From the NCBI GenBank assembly GCA_020860385.1, contig JAJBUK010000066.1, forward strand, positions 75 through 64,074: a stretch of DNA of 64,000 nt, in the 5' to 3' direction. Source of the DNA: Clostridiales bacterium (GTDB lineage Bacteria; Bacillota; Clostridia; Oscillospirales; Oscillospiraceae). The position numbers and the translations under genes were made by a program. Positions 20,321 to 46,451 of this stretch are shown here, one piece after another. A model generated the notes under the pieces. The model did no database searches and was not told the origin of the DNA. It saw only the letters and a program-made list of their open reading frames with translations. The first letter of the stretch is position 1, and every line of letters begins with the position of its first letter.

Positions 20321-21502
20321 ATGACGTGGACTTGCCCTGTATGCCATGCCGACAACAGCAGCGGGTGGAGCTTTTGCAAGGAATGCGGCTTTGACCGCAG
20401 CTGTGACTATGAGGGATACCCGACCCTGGCCGCGTCCCTTCCCGCCGGGGCCAGGCCGGTGTCCGCTCTGGCCGCCGCCTGGCAGCAGAAGCTGGTGCCG
20501 GGGGCGCTGCTTTGCCCTGACTGCGGCAATGCGGCGTTTTACTACTCATCCCAGCTGGGGCAGCTGATTTGCACCCGCTGCCGCAGGGCGGTGACGCTGT
20601 CCGGGAAAGCTCAGGTGCGCAGGGACAGACCTTCCGCGAAAACGCCCTCCGTTGCCCTCCAGCGCGGCGCTTCCATCACCTGCGGGGCGGAAAACGTTGC
20701 TGCTGTCAAGGTGGACGGAACCTGTGTCGCAGCGGGGAATAACCGTTCCGGTCAGTGCAGGGTGGAAGGCTGGAAGGATTTAATCGCGGTGGCCGCCGGG
20801 GCCGAACACACGGTGGGCCTCCGTTCAGACGGAACCGTTGTGGCCACGGGGAGCAACTGGAGCGGTCAGTGTGGTGTAAGCGACTGGGCGGGCATCACTG
20901 CGATTGCCGCCGGACGCTGGCACACGGCAGGGCTGAAAGCGGACGGCACCGTTGTGGCCGCCGGGGGCAACGCGGGCAAACGGTGCAATGTGGGAAAATG
21001 GACCGACATCATTGCGGTGGCCGCCGGAGGCAACCATACGGTGGGGTTGCGGGCCGACCACACGGTCGTTGCTGAGGGGGAAAACGGCTTCTATGGACAG
21101 TGCAATGTGAGCGGTTGGCACGATATTGCGGCGATAGCCGCCGGGGCCTGCCACACGGTGGGGCTGCGCACCAACGGAACGGTGATTGCTTCGGGCAGCA
21201 ACGGCTCCGGGCAATGTAACGTGGAAAAATGGACAGGTATCATCGCGGTGGCTGCCGGAGAATACCATACAGTGGGCCTGAAATCCGATGGCACAGTGGT
21301 CGCTGTTGGAAGTAATGTTTCTGGCCAATGCAACGTAAAAAGCTGGAGAAATATCGTTGCGGTGGCGGCAGGAGCCGGGCATACGGTAGGGCTGCGGGCG
21401 GACGGTACGATGGTCGCCGTGGGGGAAAACCAGAGCGGCCAATGCAATGTGAAGAAGTGGCGGGGTATCGCCCTTCCTGCCGCAAATCCAATGCACCGAT
21501 AA
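20321..21502 (+). CDS. Zn-ribbon + RCC1-like 7-repeat beta-propeller protein, paralog 1
   Basis: CPVC..CKEC and CPDC..CTRC pairs, then seven ~38-aa repeats IxAxAAGxxHTVGLxxDGTVVAxGxNxxGQCNVxxW; no signal peptide. Confidence 0.88.
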   Translation: MTWTCPVCHADNSSGWSFCKECGFDRSCDYEGYPTLAASLPAGARPVSALAAAWQQKLVPGALLCPDCGNAAFYYSSQLGQLICTRCRRAVTLSGKAQVRRDRPSAKTPSVALQRGASITCGAENVAAVKVDGTCVAAGNNRSGQCRVEGWKDLIAVAAGAEHTVGLRSDGTVVATGSNWSGQCGVSDWAGITAIAAGRWHTAGLKADGTVVAAGGNAGKRCNVGKWTDIIAVAAGGNHTVGLRADHTVVAEGENGFYGQCNVSGWHDIAAIAAGACHTVGLRTNGTVIASGSNGSGQCNVEKWTGIIAVAAGEYHTVGLKSDGTVVAVGSNVSGQCNVKSWRNIVAVAAGAGHTVGLRADGTMVAVGENQSGQCNVKKWRGIALPAANPMHR

Positions 21503-21534
21503 CTTGACCCACCCAAGAAAAGAGGAAACGTACA

Positions 21535-22716
21535 ATGACATGGATTTGCCCAGTCTGCCAGGCGGAATGCTCCGCCCCGTGGATTTGCCCCAGCTGCGGG
21601 TTTGACCGCAGCTGTGACTGTGAACAGTATGGGACGCTGACCGCGCCTCCTCCCGCCGGGGGGAAGCCGGTGTCCGCCCTGGCTGCCGCCTGGCGGCAAA
21701 AGCAGATGCCGGACGCGCTGACCTGTCCCGGCTGCGGCGGCGTGACCTTCTATTATTCACTGAGCAGGAAAGAGCACGTTTGTACGAATTGCCGTACCGT
21801 GGTGCCGCTGAACCAAGACCAGCGGGCTGTGGCGCGCAGCGAGCCCCCCAGCCCGCCCGTTGCCAAGACCCTCATCGTCCCGCGCCAGTGCGCTACGATT
21901 GCCTGCGGCACAAATCATATGGCCGCCGTGAAAGCGGATGGAACGGTAGTCGCCAAGGCAACCTCGATCGTGCGCGCCTCAGGGCAGTTTGATGTCCTCG
22001 GTTGGAGCGAAATCGTGTCGGTGGCTGTCGGATACCGGCACACAGTAGGGTTGCGGCGGGACGGTACGGTAGTTGCTGTAGGCTCGAACAGCCATGGTCA
22101 GTGCGCTATAACCGATTGGAAGGGAATCGTGGCAATCGCTGCCGGAGATAACCATACGGTAGGGCTGCGGTCCGATGGCACGGTGGTCGCCACAGGGAAA
22201 AATTCATCCGGACAATGCAATACAACCGAATGGAAGCCAATTATAGCGATAGCGGCTGGGAACAGCCATACCGTGGGCTTGCGGCCTGACGGCACGGTGG
22301 TCTCGGCAGGCGAGTATGATAAATGCAATGTGTATTTATGGGAGAAAATCGTCGCTTTAGCAGCCGGAAACAGACATACGATAGGGCTGCGGTCTGACGG
22401 CACAGTGGTCGCCGCCGGGGACAACGGTTCCGGACAATGTGACGTGATCGCCTGGAGGGATATTGTGGCGGTAGCTGCCGGAGAATATCATACGGTGGGG
22501 CTGAAATCTGACGGCACAGTGGTGGCCGTGGGGAAGAGCGATTTTAACCAGTGCAATGTGCTTGCCTGGCGCGATATTGTGGCGGTGGCCGCCGGGCGCT
22601 ATCACACGGTCGGATTGCAGCGTGACGGCATGGTGGTCATTGCGGGAAGAAAGGGGTCCGGACAGCATGACCTGCCGGGCTGGTGGGGCATCGCCCTCCC
22701 GGAGACCCAAACCTGA
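21535..22716 (+). CDS. Zn-ribbon + RCC1-like 7-repeat beta-propeller protein, paralog 2
   Basis: Same 393-aa architecture; shares FDRSCD.E.Y.TL and KPVSALAAAW.QK with paralog 1. Confidence 0.88.
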   Translation: MTWICPVCQAECSAPWICPSCGFDRSCDCEQYGTLTAPPPAGGKPVSALAAAWRQKQMPDALTCPGCGGVTFYYSLSRKEHVCTNCRTVVPLNQDQRAVARSEPPSPPVAKTLIVPRQCATIACGTNHMAAVKADGTVVAKATSIVRASGQFDVLGWSEIVSVAVGYRHTVGLRRDGTVVAVGSNSHGQCAITDWKGIVAIAAGDNHTVGLRSDGTVVATGKNSSGQCNTTEWKPIIAIAAGNSHTVGLRPDGTVVSAGEYDKCNVYLWEKIVALAAGNRHTIGLRSDGTVVAAGDNGSGQCDVIAWRDIVAVAAGEYHTVGLKSDGTVVAVGKSDFNQCNVLAWRDIVAVAAGRYHTVGLQRDGMVVIAGRKGSGQHDLPGWWGIALPETQT

Positions 22717-22830: not shown

Positions 22831-22972
22831 AATCACAGTGTAATTTTTCTGTTTCGTTTTGACCGCGCAGCTGAAGCGCGCGTACCCCTTTGCAGGCAGG
22901 GCCTGCCGGGCGGAAGCTCCCGGCTTGCAGAGGGATGCGTCAGGGCGGAACGTGTGTTTAGAGGTGGCACGG

Positions 22973-24739
22973 ATGAACTTAGGCGTTGATTTTGGCAGTA
23001 CGTATTCCAGTTTTTCCTTTTATGACGAGATCGAAAAAAAGATCGAATTGTGCAAACCTGGGGAGAAGGATCCTGAGGCGATCCCTTCCATCGCCTGCAT
23101 TGATGACGACGGCAACCTTTTGACCGGATACAGCGCCAAGGCCCATATCCAGCTGGAGGACCCGGAAGCCCTCTCCTTTTCCGCGTTTAAGATGCTGCTG
23201 AACGAGCAGGATAAGCGCACCCTCACCAGCCGGAACTATTCGGCGGAGTACACCCCCAAACGGGTGGCGGGGGCGTTCCTACAGCAGCAGATTCACAGAA
23301 TTCTGAGCAATCACGCCGCCTCTGAAATTGAGAACCTCGTCATCTGCGCGCCGGAGGTGTGGACGACGCAGAACGCCGTCCGGCACGGCCAGATGGATGG
23401 CCGCACTATCCTGCGGGATATCTGCGGCAGCATCCCGGAGGTCAAAAACGTGAATGTGGTCAGCGAACCGGCGGCGGCCAGCGCCTACTTCGCTTACCGG
23501 TACCGGGAGACGGCCCCTCAGAGCTACCGCCTGCTCATTATCGACTACGGCGGCGGTACCTTGGACCTGACCCTGACAGAGGTGCATCCCCAGGGGGCCT
23601 CTGTGGAGATCAAGGTGCTGTACCGCACCGGCTTTGGGGAAAATGAAAACGGCAAAATCGGCAACGCCGGTATCGCGTATATGGAGCGGGTGATGCAGCT
23701 GGCCATTGCGGAGGAGACGGGCGGCGACCCGGATGCCATTCCGAAGGACGCCAATTTCCGTAAGGCGGTCAGTTCCCTGGAGAACAAGCTGATGGATCAG
23801 GTCTCCCTGGATGCCGTGGGAGAGAACGGCAAGGATGCCAGCAGCGACAACCAGAAGCGTCTCTGGTATGCGGTGGAGGAGTGCGGCGCGGAGCTGACCG
23901 ATTTGCTGGACAATACGGAGCAGTTCGCCAAAATCCGCTACGGCAGAAAACCAATCATTGTTACCTTCTCCCATCTCATGCAGGCGTATAACGAGATTAT
24001 CGAACCCACCCTGGAGCATTGCATGGATGAGGTCACAGCCTGGACGAAGAAGCACAACAAGCTGGACTTCTATGTGGTGCTGGCCGGTGGATTTGGAAAA
24101 TTTATCCTGGTGCAAAAGCAGGTGGAATGGCACTTTGAGCGCTCCCGGACAGGGGACCGCCGGTTCCAGTACAGTCTGGGGAAGGACCGGGAATATGCCG
24201 TCTCCATGGGGGCGGCGCTGCTGGCCTCCGGCATTATGACCATCAAGCGCACGGCACCCTATGGCATTGGCATTTATACGGAGACGGATAAGCGGTTCCA
24301 TTACGCCATCAACTTCCGGCAGGAGCTGATTCCGAAGCAGGAGTATTGGATTTGCAGCCAACCCGGCGCATCCGGAAAGGCCAGCGTCCCCACCCCCTTC
24401 GTGAACGGCTATAACGAGATCACCCACCTGTCCATCGGGACGGATGAGGACGCACACGCCGGTACCATCCTGCCGCTGGCCCCTGCGATGCAGGATAAAA
24501 TCGTAAAGGCGTATCAGGATATGACGGACGATTATCAGCGGCAGTTCCCTAACAAATATCCGAAGCCGCTCCATCATATCGGCTTTTCCATGGACGAGTC
24601 CGAAATCGTATCCATGCTGGTGCAGTATTATGAGCCGACGACCAGGTCGGTGGGGCGTACCATCCCCATCGAGCTGTCTGATTATAACAAAATGTTTGGC
24701 CTGACGGAGGCGAAGTTTGTCACGGAGAAGGGAAGATAA
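22973..24739 (+). CDS. Non-canonical Hsp70-family protein
   Basis: LGVDFGSTYS, SEPAAAS, IIDYGGGTLD and VLAGGFGK actin-fold motifs; start moved to the ATG at 22973. Confidence 0.88.
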   Translation: MNLGVDFGSTYSSFSFYDEIEKKIELCKPGEKDPEAIPSIACIDDDGNLLTGYSAKAHIQLEDPEALSFSAFKMLLNEQDKRTLTSRNYSAEYTPKRVAGAFLQQQIHRILSNHAASEIENLVICAPEVWTTQNAVRHGQMDGRTILRDICGSIPEVKNVNVVSEPAAASAYFAYRYRETAPQSYRLLIIDYGGGTLDLTLTEVHPQGASVEIKVLYRTGFGENENGKIGNAGIAYMERVMQLAIAEETGGDPDAIPKDANFRKAVSSLENKLMDQVSLDAVGENGKDASSDNQKRLWYAVEECGAELTDLLDNTEQFAKIRYGRKPIIVTFSHLMQAYNEIIEPTLEHCMDEVTAWTKKHNKLDFYVVLAGGFGKFILVQKQVEWHFERSRTGDRRFQYSLGKDREYAVSMGAALLASGIMTIKRTAPYGIGIYTETDKRFHYAINFRQELIPKQEYWICSQPGASGKASVPTPFVNGYNEITHLSIGTDEDAHAGTILPLAPAMQDKIVKAYQDMTDDYQRQFPNKYPKPLHHIGFSMDESEIVSMLVQYYEPTTRSVGRTIPIELSDYNKMFGLTEAKFVTEKGR

Positions 24740-24789
24740 GGCGGTCAGGGGGCGTATCCTCAACCGATCTGATGCAGGAGGAGCCATCT

Positions 24790-26583
24790 ATGAGATTTGA
24801 TAACGTCAGCAGTGATATTCAAAAATTCCGGGACCGGGACGACCTGACGCTGAACGAGCTGTTGGGGATGTTCCAAAATCTGGAGCTGGACGTGAAGAAG
24901 GCCCACCAGAAGATAGAAACCAGCGCTGTGGGCGATTCCGATGAGCTGACCAGCAAGCTGATCTGGCTGTGCAATCTGCCTGTCAAGATTGAGAAGAATA
25001 ATACCCAGGCGCTTTCCGCCGAATCCCGCTATCAGCGGCTCCAGGAGCGCACCCAGGCGCTCCGGCAGAAGGTAAGCAGCTATGAGCAGGAGCGGGCAAA
25101 GCTGGAGCAGGAGGTAGCCGCTGTTGCGGAGCTGGAGGAGGAGGCCGCAGAGCTCCGGGAGGAGATTCAGCGGCTCCAGGCGCGCAGGCAGGAGGCTGAG
25201 CGGCTGCAAGCGGAGCGTCAGAGGCTGACGGCCCAACTGGACAGCCTGCGGCAGTTGGACCTGGAGGGGCTGCGGGCGGAGAACCGCGCCCTGGAGGCCG
25301 CCGTGCAGGAGCTGCAAGCCACCCAGGCGCAGCTTACCGACCAGCGGCAGATGCTGGAAAGCACCAGGGCAGCCAGTCAAAACGGCATAGAAGCCCTACA
25401 GACAGAGATTCAGGCGCTTGAGGAAGGCAACGAGGCGCTGTCCGCCCAGACAGAGGAATTTCAGCGGCATAGGGAAGCGTTGGAGGAGCGGCAGGCCGAG
25501 CTTATGGCGCTGCAAGCGTCTCTGGCAGAGACGGAACAGACCTATCAGGAGATTTGCACCGCTATCGACCACTTCACCTGCCAGAAGGATGCGCAGGCTG
25601 CCCTCCTTGCGGAAAAGGCCCCCCTGGCGGAGCAGCTGAGGAACGAGAAGGAAACCCTGCAAACCCGCACTCAGGAGCTGGTCACGGAGATTGCCAATCT
25701 GGAGCATGAGAATCCGACCCTGGAACAGACGAACCGCCAGTATGGCGACCGGGCGGATCAGCTCAGACAGGAGAACGACGATTTGCGGCAGATGGAAGCG
25801 GACCTTCGGGCGCAGATCGACATACAGGAAGCGGATTATGCGAAGCTGGAAAGCGTGACCTTGCCTGGGCTGAGGGTTCAGCTGGAGCTGCACACCCAGG
25901 ATATGGAAAAGAGCCGGAAGAAGCAGGCGGAGCTCCGGGAGGCGATTTCGTGCAAGCTCCAGGAGAAAGAGGCAGAGAGCCGGCTCCTTGCTGAGGCGGA
26001 AGAGGCCCACCGGATGGCCAGCGAGGCGCTGGACGCCGTCAAGTCGGACAAGGAGCGTATGCTGCGCTCCGTTCAGGCGGTGGATGACAAAACCAGGCAA
26101 ATGAAGGCAGAGGTAGAAGCGCTGAACGCTTCTTTGGAGCAGAAGAATGAGGACAAAATCCAGGCCACCCTGGCGCAGCAAACGGCGGATTTGCAGCGCA
26201 GGATAGCAGACTGCGACAGAATGAATCAGGAAATCAGCCGGCTGCAGCAGGAGAATGAGGAGCAGGAGCGGCAGAGGAAATTGCTGGCAGAGCAGCAGGC
26301 AGAGGAGCAGACCCGCCAGCAGAAGGCCGTTGAGGATTATCAGCGGCTGGAGCTGGAGTTCCAGAGCCTGACCCAGAAGGACGCTGAGCTGTCAGGGCTG
26401 CAAACCAGGCTGTCCGCGATGAATGTAATCGTGAAGCGGCTGGAGGAGGACAGCAAATTCTTTGACGGGAAGCCGTTCTCGCTGACGAAGGGGCTGCAGG
26501 ATGAGATGAATCAGGCGGAACGGGCCCTCTCGGAGGCCCGGCAGGCCATCAAAAGCTATCAGGAAACGGTAAGCAGTCACTAA
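24790..26583 (+). CDS. Long coiled-coil protein (~597 aa), function unknown
   Basis: E/Q/L/A/R heptads over >500 aa; no P-loop, no TM; RBS AGGAG before the ATG at 24790. Confidence 0.8.
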   Translation: MRFDNVSSDIQKFRDRDDLTLNELLGMFQNLELDVKKAHQKIETSAVGDSDELTSKLIWLCNLPVKIEKNNTQALSAESRYQRLQERTQALRQKVSSYEQERAKLEQEVAAVAELEEEAAELREEIQRLQARRQEAERLQAERQRLTAQLDSLRQLDLEGLRAENRALEAAVQELQATQAQLTDQRQMLESTRAASQNGIEALQTEIQALEEGNEALSAQTEEFQRHREALEERQAELMALQASLAETEQTYQEICTAIDHFTCQKDAQAALLAEKAPLAEQLRNEKETLQTRTQELVTEIANLEHENPTLEQTNRQYGDRADQLRQENDDLRQMEADLRAQIDIQEADYAKLESVTLPGLRVQLELHTQDMEKSRKKQAELREAISCKLQEKEAESRLLAEAEEAHRMASEALDAVKSDKERMLRSVQAVDDKTRQMKAEVEALNASLEQKNEDKIQATLAQQTADLQRRIADCDRMNQEISRLQQENEEQERQRKLLAEQQAEEQTRQQKAVEDYQRLELEFQSLTQKDAELSGLQTRLSAMNVIVKRLEEDSKFFDGKPFSLTKGLQDEMNQAERALSEARQAIKSYQETVSSH

Positions 26584-26611
26584 AAGCATGGTAAGGAAGG
26601 CGGAAGGCACG

Positions 26612-27103
26612 ATGAAAACTTGTATTGTATGTGGGGGCAGCTATGCGGATGCGGAGTGCCCGTATTGCCATTTCCCGGAGATCAGCGTCATCGGGGACGA
26701 TAATGCGCCTCTGATGGACTACGCCAATCAGTACCGGAAGGAGTACCTGAAGGACATGAAAATTGGCGTGCTCTGCTACCGCTGGAAGGCCAGCGGAGAG
26801 CAGCTGGTCCTGGATGAAACGGCGTGTCAGCTCTTTGCCAGCGGAGAAGCGCTGGAGCAGCGCGAGGTGTGGTGCGAGCAGGAATTTGCCCGCTGCCCCG
26901 AAGGGGACGCCCTCCCGATCACGCTGGTGACGGAGAAGGACGGCGTACGGAAGGAAATCGGCGTCTCCGTTCCCAATCTGAAGGAGCCGGGGCTCCAGCA
27001 GGTGGGCCTCCGCCTCCGGGAGCAGCTCAGGGTCAATGTGCTGCTGCGCAGCGGACAGAAGCAGACCATGTCTGCCCCCATCTCCCTGGTGGGAGTGGAA
27101 TAA
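26612..27103 (+). CDS. Small Zn-ribbon hypothetical protein
   Basis: N-terminal CIVC...CPYC; host-like codon use; in-operon position. Confidence 0.7.
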   Translation: MKTCIVCGGSYADAECPYCHFPEISVIGDDNAPLMDYANQYRKEYLKDMKIGVLCYRWKASGEQLVLDETACQLFASGEALEQREVWCEQEFARCPEGDALPITLVTEKDGVRKEIGVSVPNLKEPGLQQVGLRLREQLRVNVLLRSGQKQTMSAPISLVGVE

Positions 27104-27139: not shown

Positions 27140-28741
27140 TTGTTTTCCACACATAAACAGCTGTATTTCGTATTCCAGCACGAGGGCGAGACGTATTTTC
27201 TGGACAGCACGCTTCAGCTCAGGCTGGACGATTGGCTTCGGCTTTCCCTGCGCAGGAGCGGCTATCGCTATACCTACTTCCTGGATGCGGTGGGCAGCCA
27301 GATGAAGCTGACCATTCTGGATGCGGACAGCTACCACCAGTACTACGCCAGAAGCCTCTGGTTCAAGCCCGACTTTCAGGGGCAGGTCTGCATTGACCTG
27401 GATCAGGAGAGGGCTGTCCAGTGGCTGACGAAGGAGCTGGGCAGGAGGAACGGAGCGTCTGCATTCGTGTGCCGCATGGAGGCCTTCGCCCGGCTGTTCC
27501 AGCCGGATTATCCCTCGAAGGCCAGACTGCTGGACAGGCTGATACAGCGGCTCCACAGCTGCCGGGATGCCCTTGTTCTGGTGGGGCCAATGGAGATGAC
27601 GGAAGAGGTGCTTTCCCTGTATACTGCGCCGGGCAGCGTACTGGCCTATGTGGACAGGGAGACCGGGCAGAGCCTTTGCAGGAGCGCCCGGGAGCTGCTG
27701 CTGGATAAGGACAACCTGTGCTTCTTTGACAGGCTGCGGGAAAAGCTGGACGATCAGTTCCTTGAACTGGGTACCTTTACCTTTGACGGCCTGAAGACGC
27801 TGATGGGAAACGTCCGCTTTGCCCGGGACGAGGCCTGGGACGAAGGCACGCTCCTGGATTATACCAACTTCCTGTACTTCTGGACGTACAAGCCCAAGCT
27901 GAGGGCCTATTGCCAGGGGCTGTTTTCCTCGCTGAAGCAGCCGATTACCTATGCCGCCCTGTTCCGTTGCCTCTGCGATAACGGAATCACCGCAATGGAG
28001 GAGCGTATTCAGCGCCTGCGGCGCTCCGCCAGGAATAAGAACGAATCGGAGCGGCTGATCGACATTTTGGTACATCAATTCGGGCCGCTGCCCAAGGACT
28101 ATCCTTCCCAGGAGAGCCACGTCGTCTTTGCGGAGCCGGAGCTGTCCGCCCTGGCCGAGCTGCCCTGGCCTGAGTGGGCCTACCGGAAGGGAGCGTCGCC
28201 CTTCCAGATTTGGGAGCCTGCGGAGCGGGAGTGGGACGTGATGAAGCGGAGCCTTCTGAAGGCGCGGAACCGGCCCTTCCCCCGGACGCGCATCCGCTGG
28301 ATCGATAAATTCGTGGTGCGCATGAAGCGGGCGGAGAATCGCGGCGACCATTGGACGGTGCGACGCACGGTCAACGTGCTGCTGTATTGCGGGAATAACC
28401 TCTATACCGAGGGGGAGTTCGACCAGTACTGTCAGGGCTGTGAGCGGTACCTCACCGTCTCTGAGGGATATTTTGACAAGTACAGGGAGTATCTGCGCAT
28501 CAAGCCCTCCGGTACAGACGCGGTCGCTGCGGTGCAGGGGCAGCTGTACAGCTATGGAATCGCCCTGGAGAGCGCGGACGCGGAGTATCAGACCGTTTCG
28601 GAAATCAGCGGCATCGACCTGACCGACACCCTGCAAACGCTCTTGGAGAGCGTCCAGCCGACGCCGGACCACAGCGCCGATGCCGATATGGACAGTGAAA
28701 CTGCCAGCCGCATCCTGGAAGCACGCGCCAACAGGAGGTAG
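27140..28741 (+). CDS. Hypothetical protein (533 aa)
   Basis: Long ORF with GAGGAGG RBS and TTG start; no family recognised. Confidence 0.75.
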   Translation: MFSTHKQLYFVFQHEGETYFLDSTLQLRLDDWLRLSLRRSGYRYTYFLDAVGSQMKLTILDADSYHQYYARSLWFKPDFQGQVCIDLDQERAVQWLTKELGRRNGASAFVCRMEAFARLFQPDYPSKARLLDRLIQRLHSCRDALVLVGPMEMTEEVLSLYTAPGSVLAYVDRETGQSLCRSARELLLDKDNLCFFDRLREKLDDQFLELGTFTFDGLKTLMGNVRFARDEAWDEGTLLDYTNFLYFWTYKPKLRAYCQGLFSSLKQPITYAALFRCLCDNGITAMEERIQRLRRSARNKNESERLIDILVHQFGPLPKDYPSQESHVVFAEPELSALAELPWPEWAYRKGASPFQIWEPAEREWDVMKRSLLKARNRPFPRTRIRWIDKFVVRMKRAENRGDHWTVRRTVNVLLYCGNNLYTEGEFDQYCQGCERYLTVSEGYFDKYREYLRIKPSGTDAVAAVQGQLYSYGIALESADAEYQTVSEISGIDLTDTLQTLLESVQPTPDHSADADMDSETASRILEARANRR

Positions 28742-28813: not shown

Positions 28814-30082
28814 ATGCCATTTACGGGAAAAAACAAGAAGCGGACCACATCCCGTTCATCTGCCAGCGGGGTGGGCAAGGTGATCGAAGATGTGAAGGCC
28901 GCCGTCGGCCTTGCGCCGCAGAAGGAGGAATCCCCTGCCGCCGTCATGAGCGAGAACCGGAGCAGAGGCGAGGAAATCGTCAGCACGCTGCGCAGCATCC
29001 AGTTCTCCCAGGGGCAGCTTCCGGACACGAAAAGCGATGAGAAGCAGCCCTGCGGCGACATGGAGATGACCCGCAACGCGATTTTGAAGAAAATCGACAA
29101 TGCCCCCACGATTTTTGACCAGATCGAAGGTATCGACCGGGTGCTGCTCTATGCGGCCCGGGCCTGGAAGACCGCCGTGGAGGATGGCTCGCCCAACAAG
29201 GCGGAGTGGGCCATGAACGCCCTCAGTGCGGGCGTCCTGTTCCTGCGGGACAATGTTCCGGAGGATCAGGAGGACCGCAAGGAGCAGATTTTGGCGGCCC
29301 GGGTCAAGTACATGGAGAAGTATGACAATATCATCCATACTTATGAGGAGATTGACAACCTGGAAAAGACCATCCGCGCCGCAGATGTCCTGGTGGACGA
29401 AAAGTGGAAGCAGGTGGAGGCCTTTAAAAAGCGCCTCAAGGAGATGCAGGAGACGGAGGAAGGGCAGCGGCTCTACGGCAGACTGAAGGCCCATGTGGAC
29501 CAGAATGACCGCCTCACGGCGGAGGAGAAGGCCTTCGATGATGAGCTGGGTGTCTACGCCAACATGGCCTATGCCATTGACCAGCAGAAGGATATTACCG
29601 CCGGCAACAAGGTGCAGCTTCTGGCGGCCTATCAGAAGGCGGAGACCTTCCGCATCGCCCTGAACGAGCAGCCGGTGGTCTATGACGAGACCATCAATGC
29701 GCAGTATGTCGCCCTGCTGGATGAGCAGGTCGCCCACCTGGCGGCCCAGTATGCGGTGGCCAGGGAGATGTCCGACGCTGCGGTGAAGTATGCCGCCGCC
29801 AGAAAGAGCGTCCTGAACGGCGAGGATGCGGTGGCCATCCGCAGCAATATGCTGGCATGGATGGAGAAGGTCCAGGAGGAGGATTACTCCGTGGATACCA
29901 TTTCCGAGCAGATTGCCCGCCGCAGAACGGAGCAGCTGGCAGAGATGAGGAAGAACAGAGCCGTTCTGGAGGAGACGCAGACGAATCAGACGGCGAACTT
30001 CGATATCAACTTCGACACCGAAGTGAACGAGAATACGGAAGAGAACGAGGCTGTCAACGAGCAGTACAATTACAACACCTGA
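28814..30082 (+). CDS. Alpha-helical/coiled-coil hypothetical protein with an acidic tail
   Basis: Basic N-terminus, helical heptads, E/N-rich C-terminus. Confidence 0.75.
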   Translation: MPFTGKNKKRTTSRSSASGVGKVIEDVKAAVGLAPQKEESPAAVMSENRSRGEEIVSTLRSIQFSQGQLPDTKSDEKQPCGDMEMTRNAILKKIDNAPTIFDQIEGIDRVLLYAARAWKTAVEDGSPNKAEWAMNALSAGVLFLRDNVPEDQEDRKEQILAARVKYMEKYDNIIHTYEEIDNLEKTIRAADVLVDEKWKQVEAFKKRLKEMQETEEGQRLYGRLKAHVDQNDRLTAEEKAFDDELGVYANMAYAIDQQKDITAGNKVQLLAAYQKAETFRIALNEQPVVYDETINAQYVALLDEQVAHLAAQYAVAREMSDAAVKYAAARKSVLNGEDAVAIRSNMLAWMEKVQEEDYSVDTISEQIARRRTEQLAEMRKNRAVLEETQTNQTANFDINFDTEVNENTEENEAVNEQYNYNT

Positions 30083-30113
30083 CCCGCCGGAATCAGAAAG
30101 GAGCATGACGAAA

Positions 30114-30755
30114 ATGCCGAATATTTTTTCCAAGCGCAGCCCCGAGGAGGCCTATATCGATAAGACAATGAAGCGTATCCGCCAGCGGCAGGAGCACGCC
30201 CAGACCATTGCGGCATACGCCGCTCAGCTGGAGGAATGCAGGCTGTTTTTCCAGCACACGGTGGATTCCAGCCGGTTGAATGTGCTGCGCCGCAGGGAAG
30301 CCCGTGTCAGCGACGCCATGGAAAAGGAGCGCATCCATGACGCCATCATCGGCCTGCTGGCCGTGGAGGAGGCCAAGCTGGACCTGAGCTCCATCAGCTC
30401 CGCGAAGGATATGGACTACGCCATGCGGAACCTGGAGAAGATCCTCCGCCAGATGTATCGCATGAACGCCGGCAGTACCTCCCTGACCAAGAAGGAACTG
30501 CGGGAGAATACGGGCATGGCCTTTGACGATACCATGGAGCCCATCACCTTCTCCAGCCGTGCGGAGCTGGTGGATGAGCGGTTCGTAGAGCGGGTGATCC
30601 AGGGCTACAGCATTAAGGAGTGCATGGAGCAGACGAATGTGGTCGGCAGCGGCGCTGCGGATATGGGCGGCATCAACTTTGAAACGCCCCCCGACGATAA
30701 GAAAATCACCAGCGACGAAGAAGAGATTCTCAAGAACCGGGCCGGCAGACGCTGA
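30114..30755 (+). CDS. Putative ESCRT-III/Snf7-like protein
   Basis: ~213 aa, helical; N-terminal MPNIFSKR; helix-2-like LLAVEEAKLDLSSISSAKDMDYAMRNLEKILRQM; acidic tail ending in ExxLxxR. The CDS is secure; the family call is an inference. Confidence 0.6.
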   Translation: MPNIFSKRSPEEAYIDKTMKRIRQRQEHAQTIAAYAAQLEECRLFFQHTVDSSRLNVLRRREARVSDAMEKERIHDAIIGLLAVEEAKLDLSSISSAKDMDYAMRNLEKILRQMYRMNAGSTSLTKKELRENTGMAFDDTMEPITFSSRAELVDERFVERVIQGYSIKECMEQTNVVGSGAADMGGINFETPPDDKKITSDEEEILKNRAGRR

Positions 30756-30794
30756 GCCTGGCAGAGAGGGCATCCGGTGCCGCAGGAGGGAATT

Positions 30795-32054
30795 ATGAAC
30801 ATTAGAACGATCAATCGCTTAAATAACGAATACCGTGCCTATGTCTATGAGGCGGAAACCATCCGCAGCATGAAGAAGGAGGCCAGCCGGGAGGAAGGGC
30901 TGAATTATCAGCGGGCCGCCCAGATCTGCGGCCAGCTGGCCACTATGACCACCGGTGCAGAGGCCCAGCGCTGGATGCGCTGCCAGACTATGTGCCAGGA
31001 GAAAATGCGGGAGATTTGGAAGGACCTGTTTCCGGAGGAGGAGACTGAGGCCGAGGCCGAGCCTGCGGCATCCGATGAACCGGAAGAGGAGAAGAAACCG
31101 GCTCCCGCAAAGCCCGCAGCCAAGAAGAAGGCCGCCGCAAAGGACGATGTTTCCGATGCGACGGTAGAGAAGTGGTTCAAGCCGGACCCGGGGTATGGCT
31201 TCGACGAAGTGGCCGGCATGGATGATGTGAAGAAGCTGCTGTCCGATTGTGTGCGGGATGTCTCCATGAGCGCCCTGAATGACTATCTGGGGATGCCCAC
31301 CGTCCAGTCCTTCTTCTTCTACGGCCCTCCCGGCTGCGGGAAGACCTTTATCATCGAGGCATTTGCCCATGAACTGATGCAGCAGGGCTACAAATATATG
31401 TCCTTGGCCACGGCGGATATCCACAGCAAGTTCTCCGGCGAGGCGGATAAAATCGTCCGTCGGGCCTTTGAAGAGGCGGCGAAGAATGCGCCCTGCATCC
31501 TGTTTATGGACGAGGTGGACGGCATCTGCCAGAACCGCTCCATCGCGAATCTTTCCGACTTTAATATGCAGCTGACGACCACCTTCCTGACCAGCTTCAA
31601 CCAGCTTCAGAAAGCGAACCGGGATAAGAAATCCGTCATCTTCATCGGCGCCACCAACTACCCGGCCAATGTGGATACGGCTATGCTGGACCGGGTGGAG
31701 CTGGTACAGATCCCTCTGCCCGACCAGGCCGCCCGCGCCCACGCCTTCCGCAAGAAGTTTGGAGACATCATCCAGCTGGAGGACGGCTTTGACTGGAGCG
31801 ACATGGCGGACTGCACCGAGTGCTATAATCAGCGGGACATCAACCGGGTCAGCACGAAGCTGCTGAACCTGATCCGTACCTCCGTGGCGGAAGGATGCGC
31901 CGATGGGGAGAGCGCCGTTACCCGGTTGCAGGACGGCTCCTTCCGGCTGACGCGGGAGCTGTTTGAGACTGCCAAAGCCTCCTATGTGCCATCGCCCAAG
32001 GACGATATTGAGCGGTCGCTGAACGAGTTTGAAGAGCAGATGCGTACCCTTTGA
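30795..32054 (+). CDS. Single-ring classical AAA+ ATPase with an N-terminal three-helix (MIT-like) domain, Vps4-like
   Basis: FDEVAGMDDVK, YGPPGCGKT, SKFSGE pore loop, LFMDEVD, GATNYP and DTAMLDR; E/K/A/P linker after an ~80-aa helical domain. Confidence 0.8.
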   Translation: MNIRTINRLNNEYRAYVYEAETIRSMKKEASREEGLNYQRAAQICGQLATMTTGAEAQRWMRCQTMCQEKMREIWKDLFPEEETEAEAEPAASDEPEEEKKPAPAKPAAKKKAAAKDDVSDATVEKWFKPDPGYGFDEVAGMDDVKKLLSDCVRDVSMSALNDYLGMPTVQSFFFYGPPGCGKTFIIEAFAHELMQQGYKYMSLATADIHSKFSGEADKIVRRAFEEAAKNAPCILFMDEVDGICQNRSIANLSDFNMQLTTTFLTSFNQLQKANRDKKSVIFIGATNYPANVDTAMLDRVELVQIPLPDQAARAHAFRKKFGDIIQLEDGFDWSDMADCTECYNQRDINRVSTKLLNLIRTSVAEGCADGESAVTRLQDGSFRLTRELFETAKASYVPSPKDDIERSLNEFEEQMRTL

Positions 32055-32077: not shown

Positions 32078-33139
32078 ATGGAGCAGGCGGAGCAGACACG
32101 GCTGTGTCGGGAATGGGCAGAAAATGTATTTTACGGGCCTTCTTATGATGATATTACGCTGTCAGAACTGCCCGACACCTACTTCTGGAAGCCAGTGTTG
32201 GAGGGGCTGAACGACCAGTTCCTGTATCAGTATTTTCAGCTAAAAAACTATCCGGGGGTACTGTTCTCCGGCCCGCCCGGCAACGGGAAGCACACCCTGG
32301 CCAAGGCGCTGCTCAATTCCCTCTGGCGGAAGCGCGGCATCCCGGAGGACAAGGCCTGTTATGCGTATGTGCAGGCCCAGGCGTTTCCGAAGGGGCAGCC
32401 GCCGCAGGAGACAGTGGGACGGGTGAACGCAGTGTTTGAACAGGCGGAGGCGTCGCTCAAAGACGGCTCGGCGGAATACTGCGTCCTGCTGTTCGACCAG
32501 ATGGAGCAGTATAACAACGTGCAGCTGGTGCTGAACGCCATCGGCGAGGCCCTGGGGGAGTATATTGACAGCATGGGCTGCGCCCGGGAGTGCTTCCTCA
32601 TCTGCATCACAGAGGATTCCGCCCTGTATAATTCCAGCCTGTTTCCGGAGCTGCTGTGCTGCCCCTGTGAGAATCCCGGACTGCGGCAGCGGCGGAAGTT
32701 CCTGCGAAGCGGGCTGACCTACAGCGTTCCAGACTGGCGAAGCCCCGGAAGCGGGATGAACAAGGATATCAAGCTCTCCGTGTCCGGTCTGTCCGTGGAT
32801 GATTTGGCGGAGCAGACCGAGGGGCTCTCCTACCGTCAACTGTCAGACTTCCTGTTCCTGCTGAAGATGGAGCTGGTGCGGCAGGGGGAGCGCAGCGAAT
32901 ATCAAAAGCTGGACGTCTCCATTGCCCTGGAACAGGACACCGTTCTGGACATTCTGGAGGTGCTTCATCGGCCCCAGCCCACCGGCGGCGCCGTGGTGAT
33001 TGCCCAGGGTGCGGCGGTATTCGGGCAGTCTGCCGCTGCGGCTGCCAACGCCCAGACTCAGACGAACAAGGACCCGAAGGATATGTCGAGCAGCGAGCGG
33101 CTGAGCTATCTGGAACAGTATCAGTTCAACGGAGATTAG
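32078..33139 (+). CDS. Degenerate (probably hydrolysis-dead) AAA+ ATPase paralog
   Basis: GPPGNGKHT Walker A variant, LLFDQ Walker B, LAEQTEGLS lid motif. Confidence 0.72.
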   Translation: MEQAEQTRLCREWAENVFYGPSYDDITLSELPDTYFWKPVLEGLNDQFLYQYFQLKNYPGVLFSGPPGNGKHTLAKALLNSLWRKRGIPEDKACYAYVQAQAFPKGQPPQETVGRVNAVFEQAEASLKDGSAEYCVLLFDQMEQYNNVQLVLNAIGEALGEYIDSMGCARECFLICITEDSALYNSSLFPELLCCPCENPGLRQRRKFLRSGLTYSVPDWRSPGSGMNKDIKLSVSGLSVDDLAEQTEGLSYRQLSDFLFLLKMELVRQGERSEYQKLDVSIALEQDTVLDILEVLHRPQPTGGAVVIAQGAAVFGQSAAAAANAQTQTNKDPKDMSSSERLSYLEQYQFNGD

Positions 33140-33154
33140 AGAGGTGAATAACAA

Positions 33155-35095
33155 ATGCGCGAATTATTGTCCAATGCGATACGGCAGAAGGGCAGAGAAT
33201 ATGTTCAAAGCGAGCGGGTCACCGTGACAGACGAGCAGCGCCTCAGCGACACCTCGGCAGAGGTGCGGGGCAAGGTGTTTTGCAGCTTCGGCTTTGTCCA
33301 CCATCCCAAAATCAATGTGGTGGAGCTGAGGGACGCCAATGTGGTGACCGATTACACCTGTGACTGCTATGAAAGCACCGGCGCGTCCGGCTTTTGCTCC
33401 CACTGCGCCGCCCTTGCCATCGCGGCCTATGGTGACGACAGGGAGCTTATCTATGAAAAGCGCAGCGGCCAGGGTGCGGCTGCCGGAGCCGGGGGGCTGT
33501 TCCAGTCGATTCCCCTGGAGCAGGTGCAAATCGACGAGGACCGCAGGGACGCCTCCGGCCGTTACGCGGCGGCCAAGGTGTTCTGCGAGTTTGGTTTTGT
33601 CCATCACCCCAGGATGCATATTCTGGGCAGCGATGAGATTGCAGACTACGCCTGTGATTGCTATGAGTACGCCGAAACCAGGGGACTGTGTGCCCACTGT
33701 CAGGCGCTGCTTCAAAAATTGAAGCAGGCGGATGGGGCGGAAGCAGCGTCCGACGCGGAGGAGCCGGAGGCCCTCTGTCAGAAGGAACCGGCGCCGGAGG
33801 AAACGCCGGACAGCGCCCCGCTTGAAGCGGAGAGCTGGTTCGCTGCGGCGGAAGAAGCAGCGCCACTGGAGGAGGAAGCGCCCCCCTTGCAGGAGGAACC
33901 AACCCTCTTGCAGGAGGACGGCAGCTCCGACGCCCCCCGGTCTATGGAAATTTTGCTGGGGGAAGACGTGGAGACTCAGGAGCCGGTGTACTGGCGGCCC
34001 AATGACACGGAGCAGGTTTTTCATACGAACATGGGCATTATCGGCACCATGGGCACAGGCAAGACCCAGTTTACCAAATCCCTGGTGACGCAGCTCTATC
34101 GCCAGCAGTACAATAACTTTGACGGTCAGAGGCTTGGCATCCTGATTTTTGATTACAAAGGGGATTATAACGAGAGCAAGCCGGATTTTGTGCGGGCAAC
34201 AAGGGCCCGCATCCTGAAGGCGTACCGGCTGCCCTTCAACCCCTTCTCCCTGACTGAAATCAGGCCGAAGCCACAGCTGCCGATTCACATCGCCAACACC
34301 TTTACCGATACCATTGCGAAGATTTACAACCTTGGCCCCAAGCAGTCCGCATCCCTGCTGCGCTGCATCATTCAGGCCTATCAGAACTGCGGTATCCTCC
34401 CAGGGGACCCCGCAACGTGGAAGCGGCCCGCGCCCACCTTTGCCCAGGTGTACGACGTGTACTGCGCCAATGACGACATCAAGAAGAACGATTCCCTCTA
34501 CGCCGTCATGGAAAAGCTGTTCCAGTTCCAGATTTTTGAGGATAGCCCGGAGCGGACAAAGTCCCTGTTTGCGCTGCTGAACGGCGTCGTTGTCCTTGAC
34601 CTCTCCGGGTACGACTCTGACATCCAGAACCTGATTGTGGCCATCACCCTGGATTTGTTCTACGCCCAGATGCAGAATTCCGGCTCCAGCAAGATGGATG
34701 AGCGCTACCGTCAGCTGAAGAAGCTGATTCTGGTGGATGAGGCGGATAACTTCATGTCTCAAAACTTCCCTGCGCTGAAAAAAATCCTGAAAGAGGGCCG
34801 GGAGTTTGGCGTTGGCGTTATCCTCTCCACTCAGTTCCTGACGCACTTTGGCACGAGGGCTGATGATTACTCTAAGTATATCCTGACCTGGGCCGTTCAC
34901 AACGTAGCCGACCTGAAACGCTCCGACGTGGAATTTGTGTTTAAAACCGATGGAGTGCCGGCGGAGACGGAGCGCATCTTCCGCCAGATCAAGGCGCTGG
35001 AAAAGCACCGCAGCATGGTGAAGATCGGGAACGCGCCGATGGTTTCCATTCAGGATATGCCCTTCTGGAAGCTGGTCAGCGACCCACAGATTTGA
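33155..35095 (+). CDS. Tandem SWIM Zn-finger + HerA/FtsK-type ATPase (DptH C-terminal-like)
   Basis: Two repeats VFCxFGFVHHP...CDC-x8-9-CxHC; GTMGTGKT, IFDYKGDY, LVDEAD and KEGREFGVGVILSTQ. Confidence 0.8.
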   Translation: MRELLSNAIRQKGREYVQSERVTVTDEQRLSDTSAEVRGKVFCSFGFVHHPKINVVELRDANVVTDYTCDCYESTGASGFCSHCAALAIAAYGDDRELIYEKRSGQGAAAGAGGLFQSIPLEQVQIDEDRRDASGRYAAAKVFCEFGFVHHPRMHILGSDEIADYACDCYEYAETRGLCAHCQALLQKLKQADGAEAASDAEEPEALCQKEPAPEETPDSAPLEAESWFAAAEEAAPLEEEAPPLQEEPTLLQEDGSSDAPRSMEILLGEDVETQEPVYWRPNDTEQVFHTNMGIIGTMGTGKTQFTKSLVTQLYRQQYNNFDGQRLGILIFDYKGDYNESKPDFVRATRARILKAYRLPFNPFSLTEIRPKPQLPIHIANTFTDTIAKIYNLGPKQSASLLRCIIQAYQNCGILPGDPATWKRPAPTFAQVYDVYCANDDIKKNDSLYAVMEKLFQFQIFEDSPERTKSLFALLNGVVVLDLSGYDSDIQNLIVAITLDLFYAQMQNSGSSKMDERYRQLKKLILVDEADNFMSQNFPALKKILKEGREFGVGVILSTQFLTHFGTRADDYSKYILTWAVHNVADLKRSDVEFVFKTDGVPAETERIFRQIKALEKHRSMVKIGNAPMVSIQDMPFWKLVSDPQI

Positions 35096-35135: not shown

Positions 35136-35169
35136 AAAAGCGTCTGCCGCAAAAACGGCAGACGCTTTT
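35136..35169. terminator. Bidirectional terminator closing the accessory operon and cotJ
   Basis: AAAAGCGTCTGCCG-caaaaa-CGGCAGACGCTTTT. Confidence 0.88.
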
Positions 35170-46398: not shown

Positions 46399-46451
46399 AT
46401 TTACAGATTTTGAATTATTTTGCAGCATTGCGTCGAAAGAAGGTTTGTTCC

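Follow-up and report, generated by a model that had tools for sequence, protein, structure and literature searches.

Why would a motor closely related to that of the restriction protein DptH be carried behind tandem SWIM zinc fingers, in an operon where no other component of phosphorothioate-dependent restriction can be recognised? This question is raised by g9 (33155..35095, plus strand; 646 aa, ATG start), an open reading frame found in a six-frame ORF list of the window, i.e. the whole 64-kb stretch of DNA analysed here. Gene calls on independent Logan contigs include an identical copy. In a conserved multi-ATPase operon found in gut Clostridia, g9 occupies the last position. The protein is not DptH itself and most probably has no part in phosphorothioate-dependent restriction.

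Architecture of g9

The first-pass annotation had described g9 as two SWIM modules followed by an acidic linker and an ATPase, a layout that is confirmed by the ORF translation together with domain matches. All the motifs that it quoted are present in the translation: VFCSFGFVHHP...YTCDCYE...GFCSHC and VFCEFGFVHHP...YACDCYE...GLCAHC in the head, and NMGIIGTMGTGKTQFTKSL, LVDEADNFMSQ and KEGREFG in the motor. SWIM module 1 (33212..33439, plus strand; residues ~20-95) is recognised on residues 63-91 by the Pfam SWIM model, whose score in g9 is barely over the gathering threshold (20.1 versus 19.6 bits), and module 2 (33515..33730, plus strand; residues 121-192) is recognised on residues 122-190 by the PADLOC SWIM model (E 5e-8). 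The internal duplication is real, since residues 20-95 and 121-192 are 43% identical over 68 aa (E 2e-20). The CxCxnCxH zinc-ligand signature is present twice, with C69, C71, C81 and H83 (nt 33359-33403) and C167, C169, C179 and H181 (nt 33653-33697) as predicted ligands. In an alignment of 17 full-length relatives sharing 46-87% identity (A1), all these ligands are invariant, as is the FGFxHxP strand upstream of both CxC...CxH(C) sets. The invariant positions are F45, G46, F47, H49, P51, C69, D70, C71, C81 and H83 in module 1, and F146, F148, H150, P152, C167, C169, C179, H181 and C182 in module 2.

In the AlphaFold2 prediction, module 1 folds into four strands and two helices, one short and one long (pLDDT about 90), and module 2 adopts the same fold. 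In the model of the complete head (pLDDT 83), the CxC pair lies at a strand end and the CxH pair at a helix start in both modules, zinc binding itself being a prediction. A fold search with this model gave no match at E < 1e-3 and no informative structural neighbour. SWIM fingers (PF04434) are known from MuDR/FAR1 transposase relatives and from SWI2/SNF2 and MEKK1 proteins; g9 likewise displays their signature, twice, at the canonical strand-end and helix-start positions, but its fingers differ from the others in forming a distinct subfamily with the conserved FGFxHxP strand. This type occurs almost only at the N-terminus of such motors. Out of 1.84 billion cluster representatives, a search with the tandem-SWIM head retrieved just 28 proteins; of the full-length matches, nearly all share the head-plus-motor layout. 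The architecture is thus as unusual as had been suggested, and is not common in unrelated contexts.

The linker (33725..33943, plus strand; residues 191-263) is proline-rich, presumably disordered, and acidic as first described, with 22 D/E, 2 K/R and 10 P in 73 residues. Its length and sequence differ among the A1 relatives. In P0029, which belongs to the same operon type, it contains a GrpE segment, YLRLQAEFENFRK, scoring over the Pfam cut-off (E 4e-10). The head also varies among relatives, with two SWIM modules, a single one or a domain of another kind, whereas acidic linker and motor are retained.

The motor (33944..35077, plus strand; residues 264-641) is a P-loop ATPase of the FtsK/HerA class and of the DptH/DndH C-terminal type. 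It matches the C-terminal domain of DptH (PDB 7ES4) with an E-value of 3e-119, and residues 230-641 are matched by seven PADLOC DndH models through their C-terminal ~400 positions (best E 8.7e-186). The Pfam models for the DUF87/HerA central domain and TrwB_AAD_bind match as well. With 55-68% identity to the motors of canonical ~1,750-aa clostridial DptH, what had been claimed as a DptH-like ATPase turns out to be very closely related to the C-terminal motor of DptH/DndH. In an unrooted bootstrapped neighbour-joining tree, the ATPases of the system were monophyletic in only 15 of 200 bootstraps, and the tree indicates neither the direction nor the number of motor exchanges with DptH.

All the FtsK/HerA hallmarks are found in g9 (plus strand): Walker A GTMGTGKT (G297-T304; 34043..34066), invariant or nearly so in A1; Walker B ILVDEAD (I525-D531, with D528 and E529; 34727..34747), invariant; and, nearly invariant, an arginine finger upstream of strand 4 (R549, in KEGREFG) with a sensor-1 glutamine (Q560, in LSTQ; 34799..34834). 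The same arginine finger and sensor-1 features have been described for the HerA/FtsK domain of DndH, which was placed in the HerA/FtsK DNA-pump clade (PMC10853773). Judged from its motifs, the g9 ATPase is catalytically intact.

What separates g9 from DptH is everything outside the motor. Canonical DptH relatives measure 1,708-1,800 aa versus 646 aa for g9, from which the ~1,300 other DptH residues are missing and whose N-terminal 263 residues are made of the two SWIM modules and the linker. As a protein of 646 aa devoid of the restriction-endonuclease (REase) and other DptH domains, g9 is unable to stand in for DptH, which answers the suggestion that it might supply the DptH function of a dnd cluster. 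The reported absence of dnd genes also stands: Dnd/Dpt models match none of the eight other operon proteins nor any of 39 further ORFs of the 64-kb window, where neither dptF/dptG (DndF/DndG) nor a dndABCDE modification cluster was found. Similarly, no nuclease is recognisable in the window, and nuclease families were undetected in the operon. The 533-aa g4 and the 163/171-aa g3 had been singled out as possible carriers of hidden nuclease folds; PDB profile searches were negative for both, their alignments contain no conserved catalytic constellation, and comparison of g4 with two AAA families by hhalign was negative.

The operon and its distribution

The operon encodes an Hsp70-like ATPase, a coiled-coil protein, a Zn-ribbon protein, three proteins without a recognisable domain, a classical AAA+ ATPase, an AAA-like protein with a Walker B E-to-Q change and the g9 motor, all on the plus strand. 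The strongest promoter candidate in this region (TTTCCA-17-TATAAT, with TG; 20206..20234, plus strand) was found by consensus scan only, as was a terminator-like hairpin just before it (20155-20175). Two paralogous genes for Zn-ribbon and RCC1-repeat propeller proteins of 393 aa each (20321..22713, plus strand; Pfam RCC1_2 E 4e-52 and 8e-56) are probably the first genes of the transcription unit, and RCC1 paralogues also flank the operon at loci L022 (five copies) and L029. They are followed by g1 (22859..24739), an Hsp70-like, actin-fold ATPase (Pfam HSP70 E 7e-7; NCBIfam DnaK on residues 41-250), whose true start is probably M39, near nt 22973; it is called as a 588-aa gene on an identical contig. 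The coiled-coil protein g2 (24772..26583; 603 aa) gave only weak ZapB, SMC, Rad50 and JetC coiled-coil matches. In g3 (26588..27103; 171 aa if begun at the first start codon, 163 aa on the Logan contig), a CxxC...CxxC Zn-ribbon with invariant C12, C15, C24 and C27 (alignment A6) is joined to a domain of no recognisable family, and a profile search against the PDB gave no match.

The next three proteins have no recognisable family. Pfam, PADLOC, NCBIfam and PDB searches were all negative for g4 (27140..28741; 533 aa), in which D403 (invariant), T406, R409, C417 and S441 are the conserved polar residues among 14 homologues. Pfam and PDB searches were negative for the helical g5 (28814..30082; 422 aa) and g6 (30105..30755; 216 aa), the latter being the ESCRT-III candidate of the first-pass annotation. 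Word-index searches with g4 and g6 retrieved 3-4 relatives only. Then come g7 (30777..32054; 425 aa), an AAA+ ATPase of the classical clade (Pfam AAA E 5e-29), and g8 (32078..33139; 353 aa; Pfam AAA E 7e-7), which has the Walker A motif GPPGNGKH and, for Walker B, FDQM with glutamate replaced by glutamine (A9). From these motifs, g8 probably binds ATP and hydrolyses it poorly; every operon with the first gene order has it. A second terminator-like hairpin found by consensus scan (35136..35169; 14-bp stem) lies 40 nt past the g9 stop codon, between convergent genes, cotJ and a Mn catalase gene being encoded downstream on the minus strand. The hosts are spore formers, and yunB is also in the window.

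Wherever flanks could be used, SWIM-bearing relatives of g9 lie in one conserved operon, carried by Clostridia of gut and rumen. Of the 120 closest protein clusters at 90% identity, 79 have one or two SWIM motifs before the motor, and the system was found in ~26 of the 80 best-matching species genomes, all of them Clostridia, in two gene orders. Among the carriers seen, Hominifimenecus microfluidus CLA-AA-H215 (locus L022) is the sole cultured one. Its distribution is patchy and its chromosomal neighbours differ from genome to genome. The motor is 57-68% identical between operons; the partners are far more diverged, with identities between the window and L003 of 23% for g2, 29% for g4, 32% for g5 and g8, 35% for g1, 42% for g6 and 58% for g7. 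Besides, motors and heads are exchanged between lineages. One sister operon (loci L085 and L086) keeps the tandem-SWIM head and the eight partners in the same order, with FtsK_alpha plus FtsK_SpoIIIE as its motor (Pfam E 1e-25 and 6e-66), both domains being present in the sister protein P0135. In P0129 and P0137, a ~450-aa C-terminal extension contains a shared Cys...His...Asp motif set; its assignment as a peptidase was rejected, Pfam support being absent.

No plasmid or phage record with the full g9 architecture was found, and plasmid matches with an annotation that names a function are mostly dptH genes matched in the motor region only. IMG/VR contigs yielded no g9 relative. A look-up of sequencing runs returned three low-share contig runs only. 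Defence islands were not seen at five loci, whose large neighbours are rpoBC and genes for surface and cellulosomal proteins.

Proposed function and alternative explanations

The reading that we tentatively prefer, with somewhat less than even confidence, is that g9 serves as the motor subunit for nucleic acid in a conserved, chromosomal and cytoplasmic multi-ATPase system that most likely acts against mobile genetic elements. As its family suggests, the motor would bind double-stranded DNA and translocate it, probably by forming a ring as other FtsK/HerA ATPases do. A caveat to the ring comes from the published DndF:G:H stoichiometry of 2:2:1, according to which this motor type may not act as a hexamer. 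The tandem SWIM head and the linker would hold the motor to the chaperone-like portion of the complex, the Hsp70-like g1 being the best candidate partner for the head. The output could be an ATP-driven remodelling or extraction of DNA-bound proteins, or a lineage-specific effector, rather than canonical nuclease cleavage.

The DNA-engaging role already proposed for g9 gains support from the sister operon, where the same head is combined with a bona fide FtsK alpha/beta motor; this swap suggests that the operon needs a DNA pump. The tether role is suggested by the persistence of linker and motor while the head varies, and by the GrpE segment in the linker of P0029, GrpE being the nucleotide-exchange partner of Hsp70. 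However, this segment is found in one lineage only, which weakens the argument, and we know of no bacterial SWIM domain with an established binding target, DNA or protein, which counts against our explanation. The flavour of a conflict system comes from the closest relatives of the motor, which are restriction proteins, from the patchy distribution and varied chromosomal neighbours, from partners much more diverged than the motor, from the motor and head swaps and from the Cys...His...Asp extension of P0129 and P0137. Three observations argue against it. No nuclease, NADase, lipase, pore-former or protease family was found in the operon of the window; no system model of PADLOC-DB v2 covers the operon, its matches being at the level of domains only (DndH C-terminus, IetA/TRIP13-like AAA and JetC-like coiled coil); and the neighbours examined (ligA, gltD-like, cotJ, rpoBC and cellulosomal enzymes) are housekeeping or surface genes and not defence islands.

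An ESCRT-like character had been ascribed to the operon at first, a label that the searches do not support but do not refute either, and a cell-biological machine is the strongest competitor, although we consider it unlikely. An Hsp70/actin-fold ATPase, polymer-forming proteins of coiled-coil and helical type and a Vps4-like disassemblase would remodel a filament or a membrane, and g9 would clear or move chromosomal DNA, as FtsK/SpoIIIE does at a closing septum. The lack of any detected effector or nuclease in the operon, the housekeeping genes around it, the true FtsK alpha/beta motor of one sister operon and the sporulation of the hosts, with cotJ and yunB in the window, would suit such a machine. 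So would the layout of g7, in which a low-complexity linker joins a conserved helical domain at the N-terminus to a single AAA module (A10), and that of g6, which is all-helical and of ESCRT-III size, with a pair of long helices at the N-terminus and, beyond a weakly conserved stretch, a short conserved one at the C-terminus. The model of g6, built from five sequences with a pLDDT of 51, places helices at 13-52, 55-89, 100-121 and 203-213. Finally, operons with the second gene order have g5 in 2-3 paralogous copies.

Against this, g7 is nearer to Cdc48 than to Vps4, its best PDB matches being Cdc48/p97 D2 (E 3e-51) versus just 1e-28 for Vps4B; the NCBIfam CDC48 and CdvC matches are far under cut-offs, the CdvC model aligns only from its position 78 onwards, and no MIT domain was detected in g7 with Pfam or NCBIfam. 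No Snf7 or PspA match was obtained for g5 and g6, either with Pfam on all aligned homologues (E up to 10) or in PDB profile searches; hhalign detected no relation between the two proteins, and in Foldseek all matches of the low-confidence g6 model had E > 2. No membrane anchor was found in g9 or in the other system proteins, which are all soluble, and the partner proteins diverge fast. Different flanks, two gene orders and a presence in about a third of the best-matching genomes (~26/80) are more in keeping with an accessory module that moves horizontally than with a core role in division.

A somewhat longer shot is that the operon represents a new class of machine, namely an apparently effector-less cytoplasmic complex of four NTPases that couples DNA translocation to protein remodelling. 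These would be the Hsp70-like protein, a classical AAA+ unfoldase, its partner unable to hydrolyse ATP, and a SWIM-tethered DNA pump of the FtsK/HerA type that can be exchanged. Such a complex could confer immunity by stripping or unfolding the proteins of invading DNA without cutting DNA, or could be a bacterial polymer system similar to Vps4/ESCRT-III with its own DNA pump.

It is improbable that the g9 motor handles protein instead, as VirB4, VirD4/TrwB or EssC do, in a three-stage chaperone cascade of Hsp70-like ATPase, AAA+ unfoldase and FtsK/HerA-type ATPase that would process or assemble a protein, for example the RCC1 propellers encoded upstream. The TrwB_AAD_bind match, weak NCBIfam matches to VirB4, EccC and TraD, two further types of protein-remodelling ATPase in the operon, the GrpE segment of one linker and the recurrence of RCC1-propeller paralogues beside the operon point that way, but the secretion-type matches are far under family cut-offs, membrane components are absent, the nearest relatives are by a wide margin the DptH motors of a DNA-translocating restriction complex, and the natural replacement in L085 is an FtsK alpha/beta pump for dsDNA. 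Lastly, that g9 is a decayed or chimeric dptH remnant, or a spare motor for a dnd/dpt cluster elsewhere in the genome, is already largely refuted and keeps a negligible probability: the motor is as close to full-length clostridial DptH as reported above and fragmentary DptH ORFs do exist in databases, but the SWIM-linker-motor layout is kept with intact catalytic motifs down to 46% identity and recurs in those 79 of 120 clusters, always in the same operon where flanks are readable, g9 has no N-terminal DptH domain and no dptF/G nearby, and canonical DptH loci hold none of the system genes.

Comparison with known systems

To our knowledge, DptH-type motors have been discussed so far only within restriction proteins or nuclease-carrying 'capture' systems. 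Here, such a motor is found at about 60% identity outside any Dnd context, on a SWIM tether, and its host operon is made almost entirely of ATPases and of proteins without a recognised fold. If the system we favour is immune in nature, it would be a case of defence in which no nuclease is recognisable; if not, it would be a new DNA-handling apparatus of spore-forming anaerobes. In the full-text literature searched, including the Dnd reappraisal, NTP-dependent conflict, CoCoNuT and PSP papers, no description of a SWIM-HerA/FtsK-Hsp70-AAA operon was found, and the text and one supplementary file of PMC10853773 mention neither SWIM, Hsp70 nor Vps4.

The likeness to Vps4/ESCRT-III (Cdv) is in architecture only, with a single-module classical AAA+ ATPase with a helical N-terminus encoded beside small all-helical proteins, whereas MIT, Snf7 and PspA signals are absent by sequence methods and no membrane link is evident. 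HerA-effector pairs (HerA-NurA, SIR2-HerA and DUF4297-HerA) belong to the same superfamily as g9 (Pfam DUF87/HerA). However, g9 matches HerA proper weakly and partially (E 1e-5 to 1e-12, far under NCBIfam cut-offs), a HerA-type N-terminal barrel was undetected in g9, and NurA, SIR2 and DUF4297 are absent from the operon. The FtsK/SpoIIIE dsDNA translocases are also of the g9 superfamily and provide the motor of the sister operon, but g9 itself matches neither the FtsK_alpha nor the FtsK_SpoIIIE Pfam model and, unlike them, has no membrane anchor.

The same domain family as the g9 motor is found in the C-terminal ATPase domain of DptH/DndH, the motor of DndFGH/DptFGH restriction (E. coli B7A DndH residues 1313-1687, PDB 7ES4), with which g9 shares Walker A and B, the arginine finger and the sensor-1 glutamine. 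The core of DptH/DndH comprises eight domains in ~1,700 aa, a restriction-endonuclease domain among them (PMC10853773). In contrast, g9 has neither this domain nor the inactive SWI2/SNF2, methylase-like and target-recognition domains, carries a tandem SWIM head, and has no DptF/DptG partners in its operon.

Related in evolutionary theme are the 'HerA/FtsK capture' systems (Aravind group, NAR 2024, PMC10853773), in which interchangeable motors occur in conflict-type neighbourhoods. There, the motor is paired with D5-type SF3 helicases, Orc/Cdc6 ATPases and active restriction endonucleases (PMC10853773), whereas no endonuclease was found in the g9 operon. The shared theme is the alternation of motors, here of the DptH and FtsK-alpha/beta types behind one SWIM head, and this swap of the motor offers a concrete way into a system, common among Clostridia of gut and rumen, that has yet to be characterised.

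Domain architecture of g9

The gene under study, g9 (33155-35095, + strand), is an ATG-started ORF from the six-frame list that encodes 646 aa, and an identical gene call was obtained on two independent Logan assemblies. Every motif quoted for it in the first-pass annotation is present in the translation, and the internal duplication proposed there is borne out by the alignment of residues 20-95 with residues 121-192 (43% identity over 68 residues, E 2e-20). Across 17 aligned full-length relatives (46-87% identical), neither module shows any variation in its CxC...CxH(C) ligands or in the FGFxHxP strand that precedes them. The Pfam SWIM gathering score is only just exceeded, and a PADLOC SWIM model matches module 2 with an E-value of 5e-8. 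In an AlphaFold2 model of residues 1-201 (26 input sequences, mean pLDDT 83), each module is predicted to consist of four strands, a short helix and a long helix, with CxC at the end of a strand and CxH at the start of a helix; residues 105-116, between the modules, are modelled as disordered. This SWIM head is followed by an acidic linker of 73 aa (residues 191-263; 22 D/E, 2 K/R, 10 P) whose length and sequence differ among relatives. In a few operons (loci L049 and L054), the head that precedes this acidic linker is not a SWIM domain.

The remainder of the protein is a motor of the DptH type. Residues 264-641 match 7ES4, a crystal structure covering the DptH C-terminal domain (residues 1313-1687 of E. 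coli B7A DndH; PMC10470545), with an E-value of 3e-119. Seven PADLOC DndH models align with residues 230-641 through their C-terminal ~400 positions (best E 8.7e-186). The catalytic motifs are intact: Walker A (GTMGTGKT), Walker B (LVDEAD), the arginine finger R549 and the sensor-1 glutamine Q560 are all conserved, and such Walker, arginine-finger and sensor-1 features are the basis on which the DndH domain was assigned to the HerA/FtsK pump clade and not to RecA (PMC10853773). Models of HerA, VirB4, CedB, EccC and TraD gave only weak matches to g9, far under their cut-offs. DndFGH, which uses the same type of motor, has been reported to bind, translocate and nick DNA. Its published DndF:G:H ratio of 2:2:1 calls for caution in presuming a hexamer for the g9-type motor.

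The operon and its distribution

The nine genes are all on the + strand. They start with the Hsp70-like g1 (22859-24739), for which the mechanical ORF has a TTG start at 22859. Since homology and an independent gene call both begin at Met39 (MNLGVDFGSTY..., about nt 22973), the first 38 codons (22859-22972) are probably untranslated. The coiled-coil protein g2 (24772-26583) is followed by g3 (26588-27103), with a Zn-ribbon and a domain of no recognisable family, g4 (27140-28741; 533 aa) and the helical proteins g5 (28814-30082; 422 aa) and g6 (30105-30755; 216 aa). Pfam, PADLOC, NCBIfam and PDB-profile searches returned no match for g3-g6. Homologues of g6 share a short amphipathic C-terminal helix (D/E-h-x-x-h-K/R-x-x-A) after a poorly conserved stretch, which may resemble the C-terminal peptide motifs bound by AAA+ N-domains such as MIT. 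Next comes g7 (30777-32054), a classical AAA+ protein that has a low-complexity linker and, at its N-terminus, a conserved helical domain; its best PDB matches are Cdc48/p97 D2, Vps4B being much weaker. The AAA-like g8 (32078-33139) retains an intact Walker A (GPPGNGKH, residues ~65-72), and its Walker B reads FDQM (~150-155), with glutamine replacing the catalytic glutamate across homologues. This substitution suggests a natural 'EQ trap' configuration, in which g8 would be an ATP-binding, non-hydrolysing partner of g7.

Directly 5' of g1 lie two paralogous genes (20321-21499 and 21535-22713, + strand; 393 aa each) that combine an N-terminal zinc ribbon with an RCC1-repeat beta-propeller. Of the promoter-like sequences in this region, the best (20206-20234, + strand) is located upstream of the first of them, after a terminator-like hairpin, and a hairpin with a 14-bp stem (35136-35169) follows the g9 stop codon. 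On this account the RCC1 pair and g1-g9 likely form an 11-gene transcription unit, as judged solely from consensus scans. Genes of the RCC1 type also flank the operon in locus L029 and, with five copies, in L022, so such genes may encode variable sensors, or else substrates, of the system.

Outside the operon, the Pfam inventory of the window is that of ordinary housekeeping (LigA, M42 peptidases, LuxS, CotJ, YunB, MoxR and others), the MoxR-type ATPase being of the AAA_3 family. Three consecutive genes at 46410-49454 (+ strand) encode proteins with N-terminal zinc ribbons of the DZR type; TPR repeats occur in one of them, a strongly hydrophobic segment in two and a C-type-lectin-like region in one. 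The PADLOC mads_2 model hits one ORF outside the operon (E 1e-21). Another such ORF is hit by a CARF-adenosine-deaminase model (E 6e-58) and is probably the housekeeping adenosine deaminase of the Pfam inventory.

Of the 80 best species genomes, about 26 contain the g1-g7 plus g9 core, which was also recovered from metagenome contigs. Two arrangements of the genes exist: in order I the final genes are AAA, AAA-like and a double-SWIM motor, and order II starts with a single-SWIM motor and the Hsp70-like gene. Order II loci (L046, L050-L053, L055, L057, L062, L064, L066 and L075) continue with the coiled coil, the Zn-ribbon, g4, two or three g5 paralogues, g6 and the AAA+ gene, and hold no g8 homologue. 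In some of their motors the second Cys of CxC is substituted (CDG...CxHC), and the L062 operon lies immediately 3' of rpoB and rpoC. Every carrier seen belongs to the Clostridia and comes from a gut or rumen sample; the sole cultured one is Hominifimenecus microfluidus CLA-AA-H215.

A search of 1.84 billion cluster representatives with the 197-residue SWIM head (E <= 1e-3) matched 28 proteins. Nearly all full-length matches (roughly 550-780 aa, plus two longer) are head-plus-motor proteins, about ten shorter ones are probably fragments, and one weak match is an unrelated Kelch-repeat protein. Of the 120 clusters (90% identity) nearest to g9, 79 have SWIM motifs, two in 31 cases and one in 48, the rest being mostly DptH or fragments of it; one g9-family cluster has 1,185 member sequences. 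The architecture, described as unusual in the first-pass annotation, is thus uncommon in unrelated contexts, yet it belongs to a well-populated family.

Module exchange and possible function

Three sets of relatives depart from the standard protein. In P0135 (650 aa; L085 10001-11953, also L086), the domains behind the tandem SWIM head are FtsK_alpha (Pfam E 1e-25) and FtsK_SpoIIIE (Pfam E 6e-66). It is encoded by the last gene of a nine-gene operon in which g1-g8 homologues precede it in unchanged order, both loci being matched by g9 residues 1-204 only. The operon therefore tolerates a genuine dsDNA translocase motor in place of the DptH type, with the head kept. In P0029 (777 aa; L084 10001-12334, an otherwise standard operon), a GrpE segment (YLRLQAEFENFRK; Pfam E 4e-10, above cut-off) is inserted in the linker between SWIM head and motor. 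GrpE serves Hsp70 as its nucleotide-exchange factor, and the presence of this segment suggests that the Hsp70-like g1 is contacted by the g9 tether. Finally, P0129 (1,098 aa; L087 500-3796, with a g8 homologue just upstream) and P0137 (1,162 aa) have ~450 residues added C-terminal to the motor. These extensions have no Pfam match and share the motifs WxGxCxG, GxH and YDxN(F/Y)P, which are reminiscent of a Cys-His-Asp peptidase and may be taken as a lead only.

We infer that g9 would be the DNA-engaging, ATP-driven motor of a complex, to whose chaperone-like components it would be tethered by the SWIM head and the flexible acidic linker. For the system as a whole, we tentatively favour an anti-mobile-element role, which we rate somewhat short of probable. 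This preference comes from the motor's nearest relatives being restriction proteins, a patchy distribution with unrelated flanks between genomes, fast-evolving partners beside a conserved motor, the swapping of modules between lineages and the occasional extra C-terminal domains. The operon has no recognisable effector and no PADLOC system match, and no defence-island context was seen in the flanks of the examined loci. The full-architecture element was not found on plasmids, phages or IMG/VR contigs, which speaks against a function in phages or plasmids and is no proof of defence.

A cell-biological machine for DNA handling and polymer remodelling, as implied by the ESCRT-like label of the first-pass annotation, would be compatible with the absence of an effector, with flanks of housekeeping genes and with the FtsK swap. 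We consider this rather unlikely, since neither sequence nor structural evidence of ESCRT-III or MIT was found, nor any membrane link; the operon protein set contains no hydrophobic segment of membrane-helix length. That g9 acts as a protein-handling motor within a chaperone cascade is improbable, given that its motor has affinities to DptH and FtsK.

Relation to DptH and other known systems

Scanning one genome per species (GTDB) for g9 relatives gave 397 loci, and the related ORFs of the best 80 fall into two classes. Those of the first are canonical DptH proteins (1,708-1,800 aa) with a C-terminal motor 55-68% identical to that of the window, and no window operon gene lies near them. Those of the second are proteins of 530-740 aa that always adjoin homologues of the window's neighbours. 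In contrast to DptH, g9 lacks all parts upstream of the motor, and DptH function cannot come from a protein that has neither the endonuclease nor the recognition domain; g9 is not DptH. The reported lack of dnd genes in the window also holds, as DndF, DndG and the other Dnd models match none of the eight operon partners or the 39 other ORFs. A DptH remnant or spare DptH motor is contradicted by conservation and context and can hardly be credited.

An unrooted neighbour-joining tree of 74 motor domains (200 bootstrap replicates) separates E. coli 7ES4 and Clostridium-type DptH from system motors and Lachnospiraceae-type DptH in 196 replicates. Single-SWIM motors form a clade in all 200 replicates and double-SWIM motors in 108, whereas all system motors group together in only 15. 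Double-SWIM motors have a mean identity of 62% to Lachnospiraceae-type DptH motors versus 56% to single-SWIM system motors. Together with the FtsK swap, this pattern fits the "HerA/FtsK capture" theme of PMC10853773, in whose text and one supplementary file SWIM, Hsp70 and Vps4 go unmentioned. Neither the SWIM-linker-motor architecture nor the Hsp70-like/AAA+/FtsK-HerA operon appears in PADLOC or the searchable literature. The individual domains are already known, as is motor exchange among HerA/FtsK systems, and the system may turn out to be more novel when folds can be assigned to the four unassigned proteins g3-g6.
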